A DNA stretch of 64,000 nt. It comes from an uncultured Chlamydiae bacterium (GTDB lineage: Bacteria; Chlamydiota; Chlamydiia; Chlamydiales; Parachlamydiaceae). Positions within the stretch are counted from its first letter, which is position 1, and each line of letters begins with the position of its first letter. A program made the translations under genes and the position numbers. The notes under the pieces are model-generated. The model saw only the letters and a list, made by a program, of their open reading frames with translations. It made no database searches and was not told the DNA's origin. This document shows, piece after piece, positions 6,311-63,429 of the stretch. The DNA is taken from the NCBI GenBank assembly GCA_963754655.1, contig CAVWGN010000001.1:768001-832000 (forward strand). The letters are read 5' to 3'.

Positions 6311-7353
6311 GTACTCGTTTACATTAGTTTTTGCCTATTGGATTGCTTCATAGGCCCCGGGTTGGGATGAGATGATTCTCTTGTAGTCCTTCAGACTACA
6401 TGAAGAGGGCTAATCTAACCCAGGGCGATGCCCTGGGCTATTTTTATTTGGAGCCTTTCAGGCTCTGAACATTGGACATTTTTGGAAGACCTCCTTCTAT
6501 AACAATTGTAGGGCTATGCCTATTAAATGGTGCATACTCCACAATCATTTTAGAGACGGTTAAAAAAAAGATGTCCAATGTTTAGAGCCTGAAAGGCTTC
6601 AAATAGCCCCAGGGTTAGGGTGTTCATTTTGTGCAAAAAATGAACTTTATTTTTCACAATAATTGGCATAGTTGAATTGAAAGTCAGATGTTTATGCCGT
6701 CCTTTCAGGACTCGATGTCTTTTTGATAGAACCCAGGCCTCCGCTTCGCTGCGACCTGGGCTGTAACATGACGGCCCTTCAGGCCTTAACAAAAAGATGA
6801 TTTAGGGACTATAGAAGATGATTTAGGGACTATAGAAGAGGGACTTAAACCTCTCTTCTTAAGGCCTGAAGGGCCGTCATGTTACAGCCCAGGTCGCAGC
6901 GAAGCGGAGGCCTGGGTTCTATCAAAAAGACATCGAGTCCTGAAAGGACGGCATAAACATCTGACTTTCAATTCAACTATGCCAATTATTGTGAAAAATA
7001 AAGCTCATTTTTTGCACAAAATGAACACCCTAGCCCCGGGTGGCTGCCTAGGCTATTTTATTTGGAGCCTTTCAGGCTCTAAACATTGGACATTTTTGGA
7101 AGACATCCTTCTATAACAATTGTAGGGCCATGCCTATTAAATGGTGCATACTCTACAATCATTTTAGAGACAGTTAACAAAAAGATGTCCAATGTTTAGA
7201 GCCTGAAAGGCTTCAAATAAAATAGCCCAGGGAATCGCCCTGGGTTAGATTAGCTCTCGTTATGTAGTCTGAAGGACTACAAGAGAATTATCTCATCCCA
7301 GCCGCGGGGCTTTCAAGCAATCCCAATAGGCAAAAACTAATGTGGTTGAGTAC
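6311..7353. mobile_element. Nested palindromic MITE-like element (shell A > B/C > shell D > core E/F), ~1.04 kb
   Basis: Ends GTACTC..ATTAGTTTTTGCCTATTGG / CCAATAGGCAAAAACTAAT..GAGTAC; inner inverted arms ~6618-6789 and ~6859-7030. Confidence 0.85.
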
Positions 7354-7418
7354 TTAGCTTAACGCATGGGCTCGGTCACAGTGGGTCCACAACCCTCACA
7401 TAAGGATTGCGCATTTCC

Positions 7419-8366
7419 ATGTTTTTATCTCCTCATTATTCTGTTTTATTGACAGAAGTTGTGCAAGCTTTTGAAACTTTGTCCCTTGAAGTCGTTGTCG
7501 ATGGAACTTTAGGAGCAGGAGGCCATGCCCTAGCTTTGCTTGAACACCACCCAGAGATTCGGCATTATATTGGAATCGATCAAGATCCTCATGCACTTGG
7601 TTTAGCGTCTGAGCGTTTAAAACCTTGGGCTTCAAAGTTGATTCTTAAACATGGAAATTTTGCCCAGTTTGACGAATTCTTAAACGAGTTGTCCTTATCT
7701 TCTGTACAAGCTATTTTGGTTGATTTAGGTGTCTCTTCCATGCAATTGGATCAACCTATGCGCGGCTTTAGTTTCATGCAAGACGGTCCGCTTGATATGC
7801 GTATGAATCCTCTCGTGGGTATGACAGCGGCTGATGTGGTGAATCAGTGGTCAGAGCAAGAATTAGGGCGCATTTTTCGCGAGTATGGAGAAGAAAAGCA
7901 ATGGCGAGCAGCAGCTCGTGTCATTGTGCAGGCGAGACGTTCTCATCCTTTTGTCACAACAGGGGATCTTAAAGCTGTTTTAACACCTGTTTTGGCTCGC
8001 TTTTCCAAAAAGGGAATTCATCCCTTGACACTTGTTTTTCAAGCTTTGCGTATTTGCGTCAATCGTGAATTAGAAGTATTGGATGCTTTTATGCCTAAAG
8101 CCATTGATCGATTAGCTCCAGGAGGACGCTTGGCCGTTATGAGTTTTCATAGTTTAGAAGATCGTATCGTGAAAACGCATATGCGTTTGGCAGCGAGTGA
8201 TAAATGGGACACCAGCGGCCTCAGCGGTCTTTTCCAAGATAAAGAACCGACTGTCAAATTGATCACAAAAAAACCCATTGAATCCAGTGAGAAAGAAATT
8301 CAACAGAATCCTCGCAGCCGCAGCGCAAAATTACGTATTGTAGAAAAATTAGCAGTCTTAAGTTAG
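7419..8366 (+). CDS. rsmH: 16S rRNA m4C1402 methyltransferase RsmH (MraW)
   Basis: Motifs DGTLGAGGH, DLGVSSMQLD, GPLDMRM, FHSLEDRIVK, NPRSRSAKLR. Confidence 0.97.
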   Translation: MFLSPHYSVLLTEVVQAFETLSLEVVVDGTLGAGGHALALLEHHPEIRHYIGIDQDPHALGLASERLKPWASKLILKHGNFAQFDEFLNELSLSSVQAILVDLGVSSMQLDQPMRGFSFMQDGPLDMRMNPLVGMTAADVVNQWSEQELGRIFREYGEEKQWRAAARVIVQARRSHPFVTTGDLKAVLTPVLARFSKKGIHPLTLVFQALRICVNRELEVLDAFMPKAIDRLAPGGRLAVMSFHSLEDRIVKTHMRLAASDKWDTSGLSGLFQDKEPTVKLITKKPIESSEKEIQQNPRSRSAKLRIVEKLAVLS

Positions 8367-8390
8367 GAACTGTTCCTAAGTAGGATATAA

Positions 8391-8702
8391 ATGGGATTAC
8401 TCATACGCTTATTGATTTGTATTTCTTTTGTCGGCTTAGTGCTTTATAAGTATATTGATAAATTGAATGAATTGACTGAGTTAAGATTATCAATTCCTAT
8501 CTTGGCACGCGAAGTCAAAGAAATTCATGAACACAATCTTGAACTTCAGTATGCAATTGATTGTTTTGAGAGTCCTTTGCACTTGATGGAGTTAGCGCGC
8601 AAACCTGAATTTGGACATTTAAAATATCCATTTATTAATGAAATTGTCCTTTTGCCTGAAACTTCTGTTTCATGTTCAGAGGATACTTCTAGTGATAATT
8701 AA
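8391..8702 (+). CDS. ftsL: FtsL-like cell division protein
   Basis: N-terminal TM plus coiled coil; lies between rsmH and ftsI. Confidence 0.7.
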   Translation: MGLLIRLLICISFVGLVLYKYIDKLNELTELRLSIPILAREVKEIHEHNLELQYAIDCFESPLHLMELARKPEFGHLKYPFINEIVLLPETSVSCSEDTSSDN

Positions 8703-8704
8703 CT

Positions 8705-61265: not shown

Positions 61266-62324
61266 TTAAAATATCCAAAACTTGCCAAAAGACAAAGTCA
61301 GGACCCAGCTCATTAGCAAAAAGATTTTGATCCATTTAAGAATGCTTGATTCTCTTTGATTAGACAATAAAATAAGGGCTTGCAAGCGTTTAACGGCATG
61401 ATGTGAAGTTGCAAAGGATCGGGCGAAAGTGGGAAGGGAAGCCGTATGTAGCCAGTCAGCTGCTTTGTAAAGTGCTTCGGCCAAATGCAAGTGATTGAGA
61501 GAGGTACCAGGCAGTCGATCGCATGCATATTCCTGAGCAAACTCTAATCGGGTCTTAAAATAGCGGGTTGGAATCCACCAAAAAAGATGACAAATCCCAA
61601 ATAAAACTGCATTGACTATAAGGTCTCCATGCATCAAATGAGCGAGTTCATGTGCAATGATAGCCTCAAATTCTTGTGGGATGAGTTTGTCAAATAGAGC
61701 GCGAGAAATGAAAATGGCTGGACGGCGCTGTCCGATGATGAAAGGGGAGTGAGGTATGGGGGTCAAATAGATGGCTACTTTTTTGTGTTGAATTCTCGAT
61801 TGCAAAAGGGAATCTTGTAGCGGATAAGAGTAGGGGGTAGAAATGGAGCACAGTTTGTTGAGCCATTGAGAAGATAAGCGATATTGCCAAATTGCCTGTC
61901 CTAAAAACCAAAGTGTTCCGGCAATCAAACCTAAAGCGCAAATTAAGGTCCACTGGCAGCCTATTTTGAGGCAAAGAAGATCCGCAAGAGTAAAGGTTTG
62001 TCCGTGAGAAAGATGAAGATCGATCGAAGAGAGAGGATACTGGAAGGGAAACAACCAGAAGTTCAGACTCAACATGCGCGTCCCCTCAGGACTGGTCAGA
62101 GGATTGAGCTGTTGAGCAAGAGCCCAATTGGAAAATTCATAGGAGCCCAAGTCGGTGATCAACTTCATAAATGGAATTAATAAGCAGAGCGCCTGAAGAC
62201 GGCCATTTTGGATGCGTAAAAGCTTCAAAGCAAAGTAAGTCAAAAAGCTTAAAGTGAAAAACGAGAGTAGGCTATTGACTCCTACATTGACAATGAAAAT
62301 CGGCCATAATGAAAATTCCATCAT
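61266..62324 (-). CDS. M56 family (BlaR1/MecR1 N-terminal-type) metallopeptidase, no PBP sensor domain
   Basis: TMs; IIAHELAHL..GD, W..P, EYACD. Confidence 0.88.
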   Translation of the reverse strand: MMEFSLWPIFIVNVGVNSLLSFFTLSFLTYFALKLLRIQNGRLQALCLLIPFMKLITDLGSYEFSNWALAQQLNPLTSPEGTRMLSLNFWLFPFQYPLSSIDLHLSHGQTFTLADLLCLKIGCQWTLICALGLIAGTLWFLGQAIWQYRLSSQWLNKLCSISTPYSYPLQDSLLQSRIQHKKVAIYLTPIPHSPFIIGQRRPAIFISRALFDKLIPQEFEAIIAHELAHLMHGDLIVNAVLFGICHLFWWIPTRYFKTRLEFAQEYACDRLPGTSLNHLHLAEALYKAADWLHTASLPTFARSFATSHHAVKRLQALILLSNQRESSILKWIKIFLLMSWVLTLSFGKFWIF

Positions 62325-62701
62325 TTCATCTCGTTCTTAGCTTTTTGAAGAATGTTTTTCATCTCTTCTAAATCTTGCATTGTTAAATCCTTGCTTGAAT
62401 CGATCAAATAGCGAATCATGGCAATAGAGCGTCCCCCAAAGAGGCGTTGCTTAAGTCGCTCAACAAGTCCAAGCGCAGAAGTTTTTGATGTTTGGGGAAG
62501 TTGATAAAGATAGTGACGTCCTTCCCGCCGGCGCTCTAAATCTCCTTTTTCAAACAGCCGTGTCATTACAGTCATGACCGTCGTATAAACAACAGTTTGA
62601 TTCAAAGCTTGATAAATTTCTTTGACTGAGACCTCTTCTTTTTCCTTGATCAGCTGGAGAATAATCCACTCCAATTCGCCAAATAATCGTTTCTTTGACA
62701 C
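62321..62701 (-). CDS. BlaI/MecI/CopY family repressor
   Basis: Motifs GELEWIIL, YTTVMTVMTRLFEKG.L.R...GR.YLY. Confidence 0.92.
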   Translation of the reverse strand: MSKKRLFGELEWIILQLIKEKEEVSVKEIYQALNQTVVYTTVMTVMTRLFEKGDLERRREGRHYLYQLPQTSKTSALGLVERLKQRLFGGRSIAMIRYLIDSSKDLTMQDLEEMKNILQKAKNEMK

Positions 62702-62726
62702 TGCATAACTCCCTTTCTTTTTTTTA

Positions 62727-62742
62727 TACTACAGTCGTAGTA
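62727..62742. promoter_or_regulatory. BlaI-type operator upstream of the repressor
   Basis: TACTACAGTCGTAGTA; same outer arms as the 61227 site. Confidence 0.65.
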
Positions 62743-62796
62743 TCTAGTCAAGCTTGAACCGTCCTAATATAAAGAACTAGTGTAATGGAGTTACCA

Positions 62797-63429
62797 GTAC
62801 TCCATTACACTAGTTTTTGCCTATTGGGAGCGCTTGAAAAGCTCCCGCGGTTGAATTGGGATGAGATGATTCTCTTGTAGTCCTTCAGACTACATGACGA
62901 GGGCTAATCTAACCCAGGGCCAGGTGTTCATTTTGTGCAAAAATGAGCTTTATTTTTCACAATAATTGGCATAGTTGAATTGAAGGTCGCATGTTTATGC
63001 CGTCTTTTCAGGACTCGATGTCTTTTTGATAGAACCCAGGCCTCCGCTTCGCTTCGACCTGGGCTGTAACATGACGGCCCTTCAGGCCTTAACAAGAGAT
63101 GTTTAAGCCCCTCTTCTATAGTCTCTAAATAGTTTTTTGTTAAGGCCTGAAGGGCCGGCCCTTCAGGCCTTAACAAGAGATGTTTAAGTCCCTCTTCTAT
63201 AGTCCCTAAATCATCTTTTTGTTAGGCCTGAAGGGCCGTCATGTTACAGCCCAGGTCGCAGCGAAGCGGAGGCCTGGGTTCTATCAAAAAGACATCGAGT
63301 CCTGAAAGGACGGCATAAACATGCGACCTTCAATTCAACTATGCCAATTGCTCATTTTTGCACAAAATGAACACCCTAGCCCGGGCTTTGAAGCACTCCC
63401 AATAGGCTAAAATTAATGTAATGAATTAC
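62797..63429. mobile_element. Nested palindromic element (A-B partial-D-E-F-F-E'-D' partial-A'), partly degenerate
   Basis: Same modules as the other copies, with loop F duplicated; a residual A' end at ~62771-62793. Confidence 0.8.

Follow-up and report, generated by a model that had tools for sequence, protein, structure and literature searches.

Layered palindromic repeats in a Parachlamydiaceae genome combine Y1 transposase-linked arms with MITE-like shells

The REPINs are among the closest described counterparts of the repeats reported here. They are associated with RAYT transposases, exclusively those of groups 2 and 3 in the published accounts, and have been reported to insert in or beside other REPINs (Bertels and Rainey 2011, PMC3116915; Bertels et al. 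2017, 10.1101/119735; Corneloup et al. 2021, PMC8266576). In TnpA-Y1 subclass 1.2, typical terminal IS200 structures are generally absent, and its members come mostly from Cyanobacteria and Bacteroidetes (Quentin et al. 2018, 10.1101/279083, PMC6006769). The terminal inverted repeats of TIRYTs are dispersed as monomers, dimers and clusters. The 26 TIRYTs described belong to subclasses 2.1 (20), 2.2 and 2.5, and none belongs to subclass 1.2 (Di Nocera et al. 2013, PMC3733652). MITE pairs that flank cargo and REPs that serve as IS targets are also known (Delihas 2011, PMC3184786; background of PMC3733652). Rfam lists the Acido-Lenti-1 motif (RF01687) as an RNA from Acidobacteria and Lentisphaerae that is probably not cis-regulatory (Weinberg et al. 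2010, PMC2864571).

The window analysed here is a 64,000-nucleotide stretch of an uncultured Chlamydiae bacterium (Parachlamydiaceae; contig CAVWGN010000001.1, positions 768,001 to 832,000). The initial annotation described six loci built from shared palindromic modules, and all six are present with the positions and modules claimed and without a transposase inside (Table 1). An 842-bp IS5 element adjoins the locus at 42401. The modules total 3,816 bp, in agreement with an estimate of roughly 4 kb. When folded with DNA parameters, each locus has 82–95% of its bases paired. The longest arm pair is 261 nt with 99% complementarity (23222-23482 and 23705-23965), and a further pair is 187 nt with 100% complementarity. 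An 8-bp target duplication without mismatches brackets the free composite at 13143 (13135-13142 and 13451-13458). The A-G-A' unit occurs in eight near-identical copies, each with CTAG on both flanks.

Table 1. Repeat features in the window (positions from its first nucleotide).
Position	Strand	Feature	Remarks
6311..7353	.	Composite A-B-C-D-S-E-F(duplicated)-E'-S'-D'-C-B'-A'	C copies direct
6311..6360	+	Shell A left arm, MITE-like end	Right arm 7306-7353; CTAG flanks in family
6362..6480	+	B and start of C: three-hairpin arm	Y1 family L003/L005/L008; mirror 7185-7300
6617..6665	+	Left arm of shell D; 9-bp joint of GCCCNGGGY type	Right arm 6983-7031
6666..6690	+	Shell S left end	Right end 6958-6982; 8-bp target duplication in family
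6691..6786	-	E: three-hairpin arm of Y1 gene L004	92% identity; mirror 6858-6957
6732-6786		Rfam Acido-Lenti-1 match inside E arm	36.4 bits
6790..6857	.	Spacer F	Partial internal duplication
7354..7400	.	Degenerate remnant, arm family J (gene L007)	Adjoins composite; by eye
13143..13450	.	Free S-E-F-E'-S' composite	27 bp from tRNA gene
16091..16250	.	A-G-A' unit	158 bp
16253..16682	.	A-B-C-B'-A'	L003-family arm doublet within shell A
22012..22034	-	Probable decayed A end	By eye
23178..24005	.	A-B-D-S-E-F-E'-S'-[F-E'-S' tandem copy]-D'-B'-A'	
24009..24101	.	Empty A-A'	Provides cmk stop codon, 24094-24096
29125..29190	+	Probable decayed A end, then J-shell remnant	By eye
42401..42968	.	A-D-S-E-F-E'-S'-D'-G-A'	Content class with 7 copies
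42973..43814	-	IS5-family element, two reading frames	842 bp; at CTAG-type flank of A'
62771..62792	-	Probable decayed A end	Adjoins sixth locus; by eye
62797..63429	.	A-B-D-S-E-F-F-E'-S'-D'(truncated)-A'	

The modular scheme itself requires some revision. Each layer was proposed to be an inverted repeat, but the two C copies of the locus at 6311 form a direct repeat (96%). Module E is not one unit and instead comprises a 25–30-nt shell (S) and a transposase-linked arm. Modules B and C are not separate; B and the ends of C make up a single arm. Module G is present but lies beside D and not within it. The remnants proposed near 22012, 29125 and 62771 resemble A ends, as judged by eye.

In a genome-wide search, the eight window modules yield 336 clusters (82 kb). 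A 26-entry module library yields 445 clusters, 290 of them at least 100 bp long, with a total of 136 kb; the modules make up at least this length, or 4.3% of the genome. A division of the layers into two kinds, Y1-linked cores and MITE-like shells, is supported. The reading preferred here, with a probability of roughly 0.7, is that the repeats represent an ecosystem of non-autonomous mobile DNA served by two classes of enzyme.

Each core (E-F-E', B-C-B' and others) consists of two ~100-nt three-hairpin arms in inverted orientation. These pairs of palindromic units with a spacer are intergenic and occur in high copy. At other places in the genome, the core arms border small HUH/Y1 transposase genes, with one arm family per gene type, which bears out the earlier description of the units as REP-like. 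Family E (gene L004) has 299 copies, B (L003/L005/L008) about 103, J (L007 type) 90, K (L006) 75 and L (L002) 5. As in the REPIN-RAYT system, doublets of inverted hairpin units lie between genes in hundreds of copies and form tandem clusters, and each Y1/HUH gene is flanked by units of its own family. Unlike REPs, which are 20–60 nt long, the unit here is the ~100-nt arm. Of the GTAG foot of short REPIN units, the B hairpin shows the sequence at its start and the E arm hairpins do not (by eye). In eight internally deleted elements, what is left of the L004 3' end lies between E arms, and five deleted elements of B type are also seen.

The transposases also differ from RAYTs. All five arm-flanked proteins score above the cut-off of the IS200-like model NF033573 (63–73 bits, cut-off 55), whereas four of the five reach 22–25 bits with the RAYT model NF047646 (cut-off 80) and the fifth has no match. 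Scores this far below the cut-off do not place the proteins in the RAYT or TnpA-REP class. The Y---Q--HH motif and HUH are present in 5/6 intact arm-flanked proteins (L006 has Y---Q--YH) and in 74/80 homologues. A C-terminal extension of about 30 residues beyond the IS200 core is found in L002–L007 and is missing from L001. On the motif and the extension, the arm-flanked proteins are best assigned to the TnpA-Y1 subclass 1.2 type, with which they share a short core, the conserved C-terminal extension and low gene copy number. They differ in having long inverted arms that form dispersed families and in occurring in Chlamydiae and several other phyla. IS200/IS605 proper (subclass 1.1), with the shortest core, a tnpB neighbour and no long arms, fits L001 only. 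TIRtrons and TIRYTs are similar in that the long terminal inverted repeats of Y1 genes are found in dispersed form as well. Membership in that group is rejected on the protein, which is not of class 2. Proteins of subclass 2.1 carry an HTH domain at the C terminus and a GGGGWSAS motif, whereas those here have ~150 aa and no such domain.

In other species, inverted arms of at least 25 nt are present at 45/71 homologous genes and at 0/68 control windows; no arm is detected at the remaining 26/71. These long, three-hairpin inverted arms are unlike typical IS200 ends, so the wording of Quentin et al. is extended and not contradicted. Protein and arm similarity are correlated (50 loci, rho 0.45, p=0.0005), and the gene occurs in 13/14 relatives with E-arm matches versus 6/26 relatives without them; both tests use related genomes, which lack independence, and some genomes may be common to the two sets. 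Dispersed arms are also found in a Chryseobacterium genome (14 matches) and a Planctomyces genome (11). The full 46-position Acido-Lenti-1 model is matched by the two hairpins of the arm that lie farther from the gene. Within the window the score lies just below the 37-bit cut-off. Among 40 homologous loci of other species, an Rfam match lies beside the gene at 23, including 13 with at least 37 bits within 250 nt, and 17 have no match by the gene. In contrast to the catalogued RNA, the motif here acts as the end of a DNA element, which suggests that the orphan RNA motif may really be a transposase-linked arm.

These data bear on an alternative in which every layer is a normal DDE MITE and the Y1 enzymes are uninvolved; the arms next to Y1 genes would then be MITE insertions or regulatory RNA hairpins. 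The DDE-type duplications at the outer ends of composites, the wrapping of a deleted E element in shell P with 6-bp duplications (3/5 pairs) and the sRNA listing of the arm motif in Rfam are consistent with it. We regard it as highly improbable, since, across phyla, the arms lie on either side of the gene with constant spacing and inverted orientation, co-vary with the protein and form a separate family for each gene type.

Under the two-enzyme reading, the second class acts on the shells. Shells A, D, S, H, N and P look like MITEs of DDE transposases: they have terminal inverted repeats, occur in multiple copies and contain no ORF. Target duplications, a feature of bacterial MITEs, are present around S, H, H-K-H, N and P composites and are direct and non-palindromic. 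For S composites, duplications are found in 9/13 within one mismatch, 4 of them exact (cross-locus 1.3%), and for H-K-H composites exact ones are found in 7/14 (cross-locus 5.5%). Shell A is consistent with a duplication, with the palindromic site CTAG on both sides in 40/76 cases. Unlike in described MITEs, a composite can stack as many as five layers from different families, and the cargo is a Y1-linked doublet. Multi-layer MITE shells with their own target duplications also distinguish this system from REPIN-RAYT accounts, in whose available text they do not appear. The flanks of the other layers are less clear. D flanks are inverted in 41 and direct in 35 of 83 cases, with only 4 exact direct; B has exact duplications in 0/30; and G flanks are uninformative. 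Because of these results, the D, B and G layers are not proven insertions.

A search for autonomous partners, as first proposed, recovers the Y1 genes for the cores and, for N, a disrupted IS701 transposase gene bounded by N ends; for D, S, H and G none was found. With the genome's IS630, shell A has in common the CTAG site and no more than about 5 terminal bases. Shell B shares 10 terminal bases with a 1.85-kb IS and also derives from a Y1 gene end.

A second alternative attributes growth to the Y1 enzymes alone. D, B, G and part of the centre of A would then be flanking DNA captured by HUH-primed or fold-back mirror copying, and the layers would have grown outward. In deleted copies, the opposite arm does contain a mirror image of the 3' end of the L003-type gene, inverted flanks predominate for D and B, D arms are symmetric within a locus like those of E and J and unlike those of H and G, and a transposase for D, S, H or G was not found. 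This account is nevertheless unlikely. It is opposed by the direct duplications around S, H, H-K-H, N and P composites, by D composites that split host B arms with the site repeated in 7/18, by the symmetry of A, which ends at CTAG in 73/76 pairs, and by an intact IS in the genome that uses the same 9-bp target as D with 9/10 exact duplications.

The proposal that composites move as units is upheld by target duplications around whole composites and by shell haplotypes. A arms differ by 8.3 when the cargo is the same and by 14.6 when it is different (p=0.0002; 42/61 composites, classed on cargo alone). Shell-A haplotypes track cargo, and the composites therefore moved as units. Mantel tests among D, S, E and F (43 simple composites) are all non-significant. 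The claim that units hit each other's symmetry centres is retained in part: units do target one another, but often at a hairpin inside an arm and not at the overall centre. E arms are identical within 37/86 loci versus 6% between loci. The data support homogenisation of arms within a locus, with much of the perfect symmetry gained after insertion.

Chimeric reads can yield long near-perfect palindromes. An assembly or fold-back artefact has a very low probability here, as the arms differ from one another, spacers are asymmetric, ISs interrupt one arm only, units are flanked by target duplications, the same architectures are seen again at sites with no linkage, and another genus has a nested palindrome of 485 bp whose core is related.

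Selection for a host function, as terminators, mRNA stabilisers, structural RNA or IS decoys, could maintain the composites. This explanation is compatible with a mobile origin and concerns maintenance only. None of the 290 clusters of at least 100 bp lies wholly within an ORF of at least 150 aa, one A end supplies the cmk stop codon, and 44/45 copies of seven IS types have a flank within these repeats. In described REP-targeting ISs, REPs are the targets; here the repeats receive insertions of seven or more IS types. Gene avoidance is expected from purifying selection alone. Shells A and H were not found as families in related genomes, and tested sites are empty in congeners; in the comparison with sister genomes that had been suggested, the insert between cmk and plsC is missing from two congeneric genomes. 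A host function is quite improbable. The role is most likely selfish persistence in intergenic space, with the absorption of IS insertions as a side effect.

In the preferred two-class mechanism, each small IS200-like HUH/Y1 transposase of the subclass 1.2 type, observed between inverted three-hairpin arms, would act in trans on single-stranded DNA, nicking and rejoining at the arms. It would spread gene-less inverted arm doublets, as RAYTs are thought to spread REPINs. The MITE-like ends of DDE-type ISs, for which target duplications are seen and transposases are mostly presumed, would come to surround the doublets at short symmetric words almost confined to repeats (GCCCWGGGC, CTAG and AT-rich 6-8-mers). 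As duplications and haplotype linkage show, the outermost intact shell then moves with all its contents, adding a layer and placing the composite at new sites. One arm would later be copied onto the other, perhaps by template switching or HUH-primed synthesis, and the variants observed would arise by slippage, deletion and recombination between copies.

It is somewhat more probable than its converse that the Y1 transposases of subclass 1.2 form a third, so far overlooked, type of REPtron in many phyla, with the Acido-Lenti-1 three-hairpin arm as their site and, in this lineage, doublets that feed a DDE relay. The arms would supply landing words for DDE elements, whose miniature ends would carry the doublets onward. 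Such a relay could use several unrelated enzymes in succession to build and move non-coding composite transposons with as many as five layers. Mirror copying of one arm onto the other could be primed by the same HUH nick.

A function and a substrate may thus be proposed for a transposase subclass described with neither IS behaviour nor typical ends, and an orphan Rfam family is offered a DNA-level explanation. With five pairs of arm and enzyme in a single genome, specificity is open to a direct test in vitro. The enzymes are closer to IS200 than RAYTs are, and gene-bearing and gene-less forms are both present, so the system bears on the origin of REPINs from IS200-like elements. The sequence evidence indicates that non-coding composites of unrelated elements can transpose as units. 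Repeats of this kind can occupy over 4% of the genome of a probable intracellular bacterium and absorb most of its IS insertions.

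All six palindromic loci of the window carry the modules that the initial annotation had described, and 82–95% of the bases at each locus are paired in the predicted fold. Their neighbours are ordinary genes (e.g., rsmH, gnd, cmk and plsC). The family extends across the 3.16-Mb, two-contig genome, where the eight modules of the window form 336 clusters covering 82 kb. With a 26-entry module library there are 445 clusters, 290 of them at least 100 bp and 100 at least 500 bp long, which cover 136,391 bp (4.3% of the genome). In the window the same library covers 3,816 bp, in agreement with the first estimate of about 4 kb. 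No ORF of at least 150 aa fully encloses any of these 290 clusters. At gathering scores, Rfam finds only two tRNAs in the window; the low-score microRNA matches were rejected as generic hairpin matches. The same composites are present on the second contig (G000:C2, 35 kb), which also carries genes that we take to resemble suf genes and that recur elsewhere in the genome in near-identical form.

The anatomy required correction. Not every layer is inverted, the two copies of C at the 6311 locus being a direct repeat, and G is placed beside D. The module first named E consists of a short shell (S) and an arm of about 96 nt, and B and the ends of C are one arm rather than separate modules. Cores below are inverted doublets of arms (E, B/C, J, K and L) and shells are the outer ends (A, D, S, H, N and P). 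Other genes of the window are included in the table; the 770-aa protein could be a secreted, host-interacting protein.

Coordinates and copy counts of repeats, insertion sequences and other features (window, position relative to the start of the window; G000:C1, main contig)
Feature	Location	Copies	Flank in repeats	Remarks
Arm family E		299 at 50% coverage		flanks L004
Arm family B/C		B, 103 at 50% coverage		flanks L003/L005/L008
Arm family J		90 at 50% coverage		flanks L007
Arm family K		75 at 50% coverage		flanks L006
Arm family L		5 at 50% coverage		flanks L002
Arm-like family M	G000:C1:696250-696300	also at about 60 other places		no matching Y1 gene found
H/K chain	G000:C1:413216-416383			eight H units alternating with K-type modules, 3.2 kb
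1.85-kb IS (L135)	G000:C1:2444908-2446751	10 full	9/10	GCCCWGGGC-type sites, exact 9-bp duplications
1.46-kb IS5/IS1182-like (L136)	G000:C1:8223-9680	10 full	10/10	
835-bp IS5			7/7	
842-bp IS5			15/23	
IS256-like			8/8	
Two IS481-like			5/5 and 3/3	
IS4-like			2/2	
IS630			1/2	
IS607-like element			1/11	
Disrupted IS701 with N ends (L132)	G000:C1:500734-503255			interrupted by ISAs1 and IS630 fragments
821-aa protein	window 19457-21922			~51-aa beta-propeller-type repeats (153-nt period), four IPT/TIG repeats (255-nt period)
Beta-lactamase-fold gene	window 45542-46735			
770-aa protein	window 56697-59009 (-)			weak WH2 (actin-binding) match only, 23 bits, cut-off 23.1
BlaI/BlaR1-like regulator pair	window 61266-62701 (-)			directly adjoins sixth locus
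ORF with mitochondrial-carrier repeat	window 63447-63944 (-)			mostly eukaryotic domain

Judged from sequence, the cores correspond to the termini of Y1 transposase genes, and nine Y1_Tnp matches (L001–L009) occur in the genome. L001, an IS605-type tnpA, adjoins a tnpB-like gene, while L009 is a fragment. Hairpin arms flank the remaining seven, of which six are intact. The predicted folds of the E, B/C and K arms contain three hairpins. Elsewhere in the genome, A, B and H shells are filled by J and K. In eight elements, two E arms enclose what is left of the 3' end of L004 (seven of ~119 bp and one shorter), and five B-type remnant elements were seen. Both types are copies of the gene-bearing unit that have undergone internal deletion. 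The two arms of E-F-E' are oriented with their gene-distal ends towards one another, on either side of the spacer F.

Five arm-flanked proteins were scored, and all exceed the cut-off of the NCBIfam IS200 model (63–73 bits; cut-off 55). With the RAYT model, four score 22–25 bits (cut-off 80) and the fifth has no match. The arm-flanked proteins contain HUH and a C-terminal extension that is absent from L001, and five of six have the motif Y---Q--HH; L006 has YH. These features would place them in TnpA-Y1 subclass 1.2. ISHp608 provides the sole matches, which are weak, in a PDB sequence search. Among homologues of the Y1 transposase, the closest carry the labels Chlamydiae or Parachlamydiaceae, and on this basis the genome is described as chlamydia-like.

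Comparison with other genomes argues that the link between arms and Y1 genes is general. The motif is present in 74 of 80 homologous loci. Of the 71 loci with full flanks (nine contig-edge loci excluded), 45 have the gene bracketed by inverted repeats of 25 nt or more, whereas none of 68 more distant control window pairs has such a repeat. Protein identity correlates with arm similarity (rho 0.45, p=0.0005; 50 loci, comprising 45 with arms and 5 own genes), and p-values for the arm-gene association are overstated because related genomes are non-independent. Among 40 relatives, 14 have an E-region match and 19 have the gene: both occur in 13, the gene alone in 6 and the arms alone in 1 (a genome 79% complete). 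The matches listed for these relatives cover the core and not A, B or D. With an arm of one homologous locus (L058) as query, there are 14 matches in the Chryseobacterium genome from which it comes and 0–18 in four other genomes; an arm of another (L088) has 11 in its own Planctomyces genome.

By covariance-model comparison, the arm would be the Acido-Lenti-1 motif. The seven E arms between window positions 6200 and 24200 reach 36.4 bits with RF01687 (cut-off 37). In the Rfam scan of homologous loci, which covered 40 of the 80 (the first 20 and last 20 by rank), a match lies within 250 nt of the gene in 23 loci, 13 of them at or above the cut-off (counted by hand). Nearly all gene-side matches occupy the minus strand when they lie upstream and the plus strand when they lie downstream. 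Weinberg et al. 2010 (PMC2864571) describe Acido-Lenti-1 as a probable, non-cis-regulatory RNA.

The shells appear to behave like MITEs. Nine of the 10 copies of the intact 1.85-kb IS are flanked by exact duplications whose consensus is GCCCAGGGC, and this 9-bp word is also the joint between modules; 178 of its 188 genomic occurrences are within repeats, a figure partly inflated by duplications. The outer end of B equals the first 10 bases of this IS. Its transposase has no family in Pfam or NCBIfam; in the Atlas it falls in unnamed clusters at 0.98 and with ISL3/Mutator families at 0.80, as a lead only. Exact duplications flank 6 of 21 single H units and 7 of 14 H-K-H composites (~655 bp; one non-palindromic site occurs twice), against a cross-locus rate of 3–6%. 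Among 13 free S-E-F-E'-S' composites, nine are flanked by 8-bp duplications (four exact, five with one mismatch; cross-locus 1.3%), and the 13143 locus of the window is among the exact ones. N, which wraps S composites, has direct repeats of 6–10 bp in six of nine pairs, scored by eye, and a disrupted IS701 gene sits between one such pair of ends. P encloses deleted E elements; three of its five true pairs show 6-bp duplications.

CTAG stands on both sides of A in 40 of 76 pairs, with symmetry past CTAG in only three. Shell A is probably IS630-type, because the IS630 of this genome likewise ends in CTAG-TACT, a match of only about 5 bases. The flanks of 83 D pairs are direct in 35, inverted in 41 and tied in 7. 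In 18 D composites that follow a B-arm site, the site is repeated and the host arm continues in seven, B is mirrored in four and seven are otherwise arranged. B has no exact duplication in 30 cases. In the search for autonomous ISs suggested by the initial annotation, the intact ORFs enclosed by A, D, G, H, B, S or J ends all belonged to other ISs that had inserted there. No H shell family emerged from 299 further genomes of this order (two candidates per genome scored, one genome unscored). The A end, likewise not seen as a family in relatives, has no exact match in metagenome contigs and at most two one-mismatch matches in 72 family genomes, like the control, versus 139 in this genome.

Target duplications around composites, recurrence at unlinked sites and shell-cargo linkage support the earlier proposal that composites may move as units. 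A composites recur at unlinked sites as A-G-A' (8 copies), A-D..D'-A' (6), A-D..D'-G-A' (7) and A-J-J'-A' (12). A arms differ at 8.3 positions when two composites share a cargo class and at 14.6 when they do not (p=0.0002; 42 of 61 composites classed on cargo alone). Mantel tests of linkage that relate D, S, E and F to one another are null; sequence diversity is low there, and the arms have been homogenised. The sister-genome comparison proposed at the outset is consistent with insertion: cmk and plsC are adjacent in two congeners (aligned ends 18 and 77 nt apart) versus 936 nt apart here, and DUF5399 and rsmH are 168 and 353 nt apart versus 2,083 nt. Target words are unreadable in the congeners because these are other species. 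Two further loci chosen for comparison of empty sites (L128 and L131) lack the neighbouring gene and are uninformative. One sequencing run, perhaps not independent of the assembly, gives short contigs with collapsed high depth on modules and some junctions; none spans a locus.

At the cmk locus, the stop codon (window 24094-24096) lies in the terminus of shell A; with the CTAG site in its original state, the C-terminus would be of similar length. In another genus, a 485-bp nested palindrome (L011, G016:C61, 1385-1869) has a related E-type core within different outer arms.

The symmetry of the arms is in part a later acquisition. Left and right arms are identical within loci in 37 of 86 cases for E (6% between loci), 54 of 80 for D (29%) and 4 of 15 for J (0%). 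There is no such effect for H and G and little for A and B. In B-type deleted elements, the 3' end of the gene is mirrored in the opposite arm. Later-acquired symmetry accounts for the erosion of D duplications from inside, where the base adjacent to D is inverted in 38 cases versus direct in 17. Template switching is the usual explanation for mirror copying between arms. Priming at an HUH nick is given as a possibility for REP spread in the literature.

IS flanks were counted against the repeats, which with padding make up 4.8% of the genome. In the copies seen, the 1.46-kb IS hits the same E-arm hairpin, with a 9-bp duplication. The IS256, IS481, IS4 and IS607 labels are presumptive, assigned from the appearance of the protein sequences.

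Several components are already in print: REPINs and REPINs inside REPINs, Y1 genes with long TIRs (Di Nocera et al. 2013, PMC3733652), IS targeting of REPs (background of PMC3733652) and MITE-flanked cargo (Delihas 2011, PMC3184786). In a literature search with most subscription papers outside its scope, we found no report of Acido-Lenti-1 tied to a transposase, of multi-layer bacterial MITE-REP composites or of such repeats in environmental chlamydiae. Subclass 1.2 tied to dispersed arms was not found either, and the Quentin, Di Nocera and Weinberg supplements may already note such arms. The phenomenon is real, genome-wide and mechanistically interpretable. From sequence, with the enzymology inferred, these repeats are read as Y1-linked arm doublets inside DDE-type shells that moved as composites and were homogenised afterwards.
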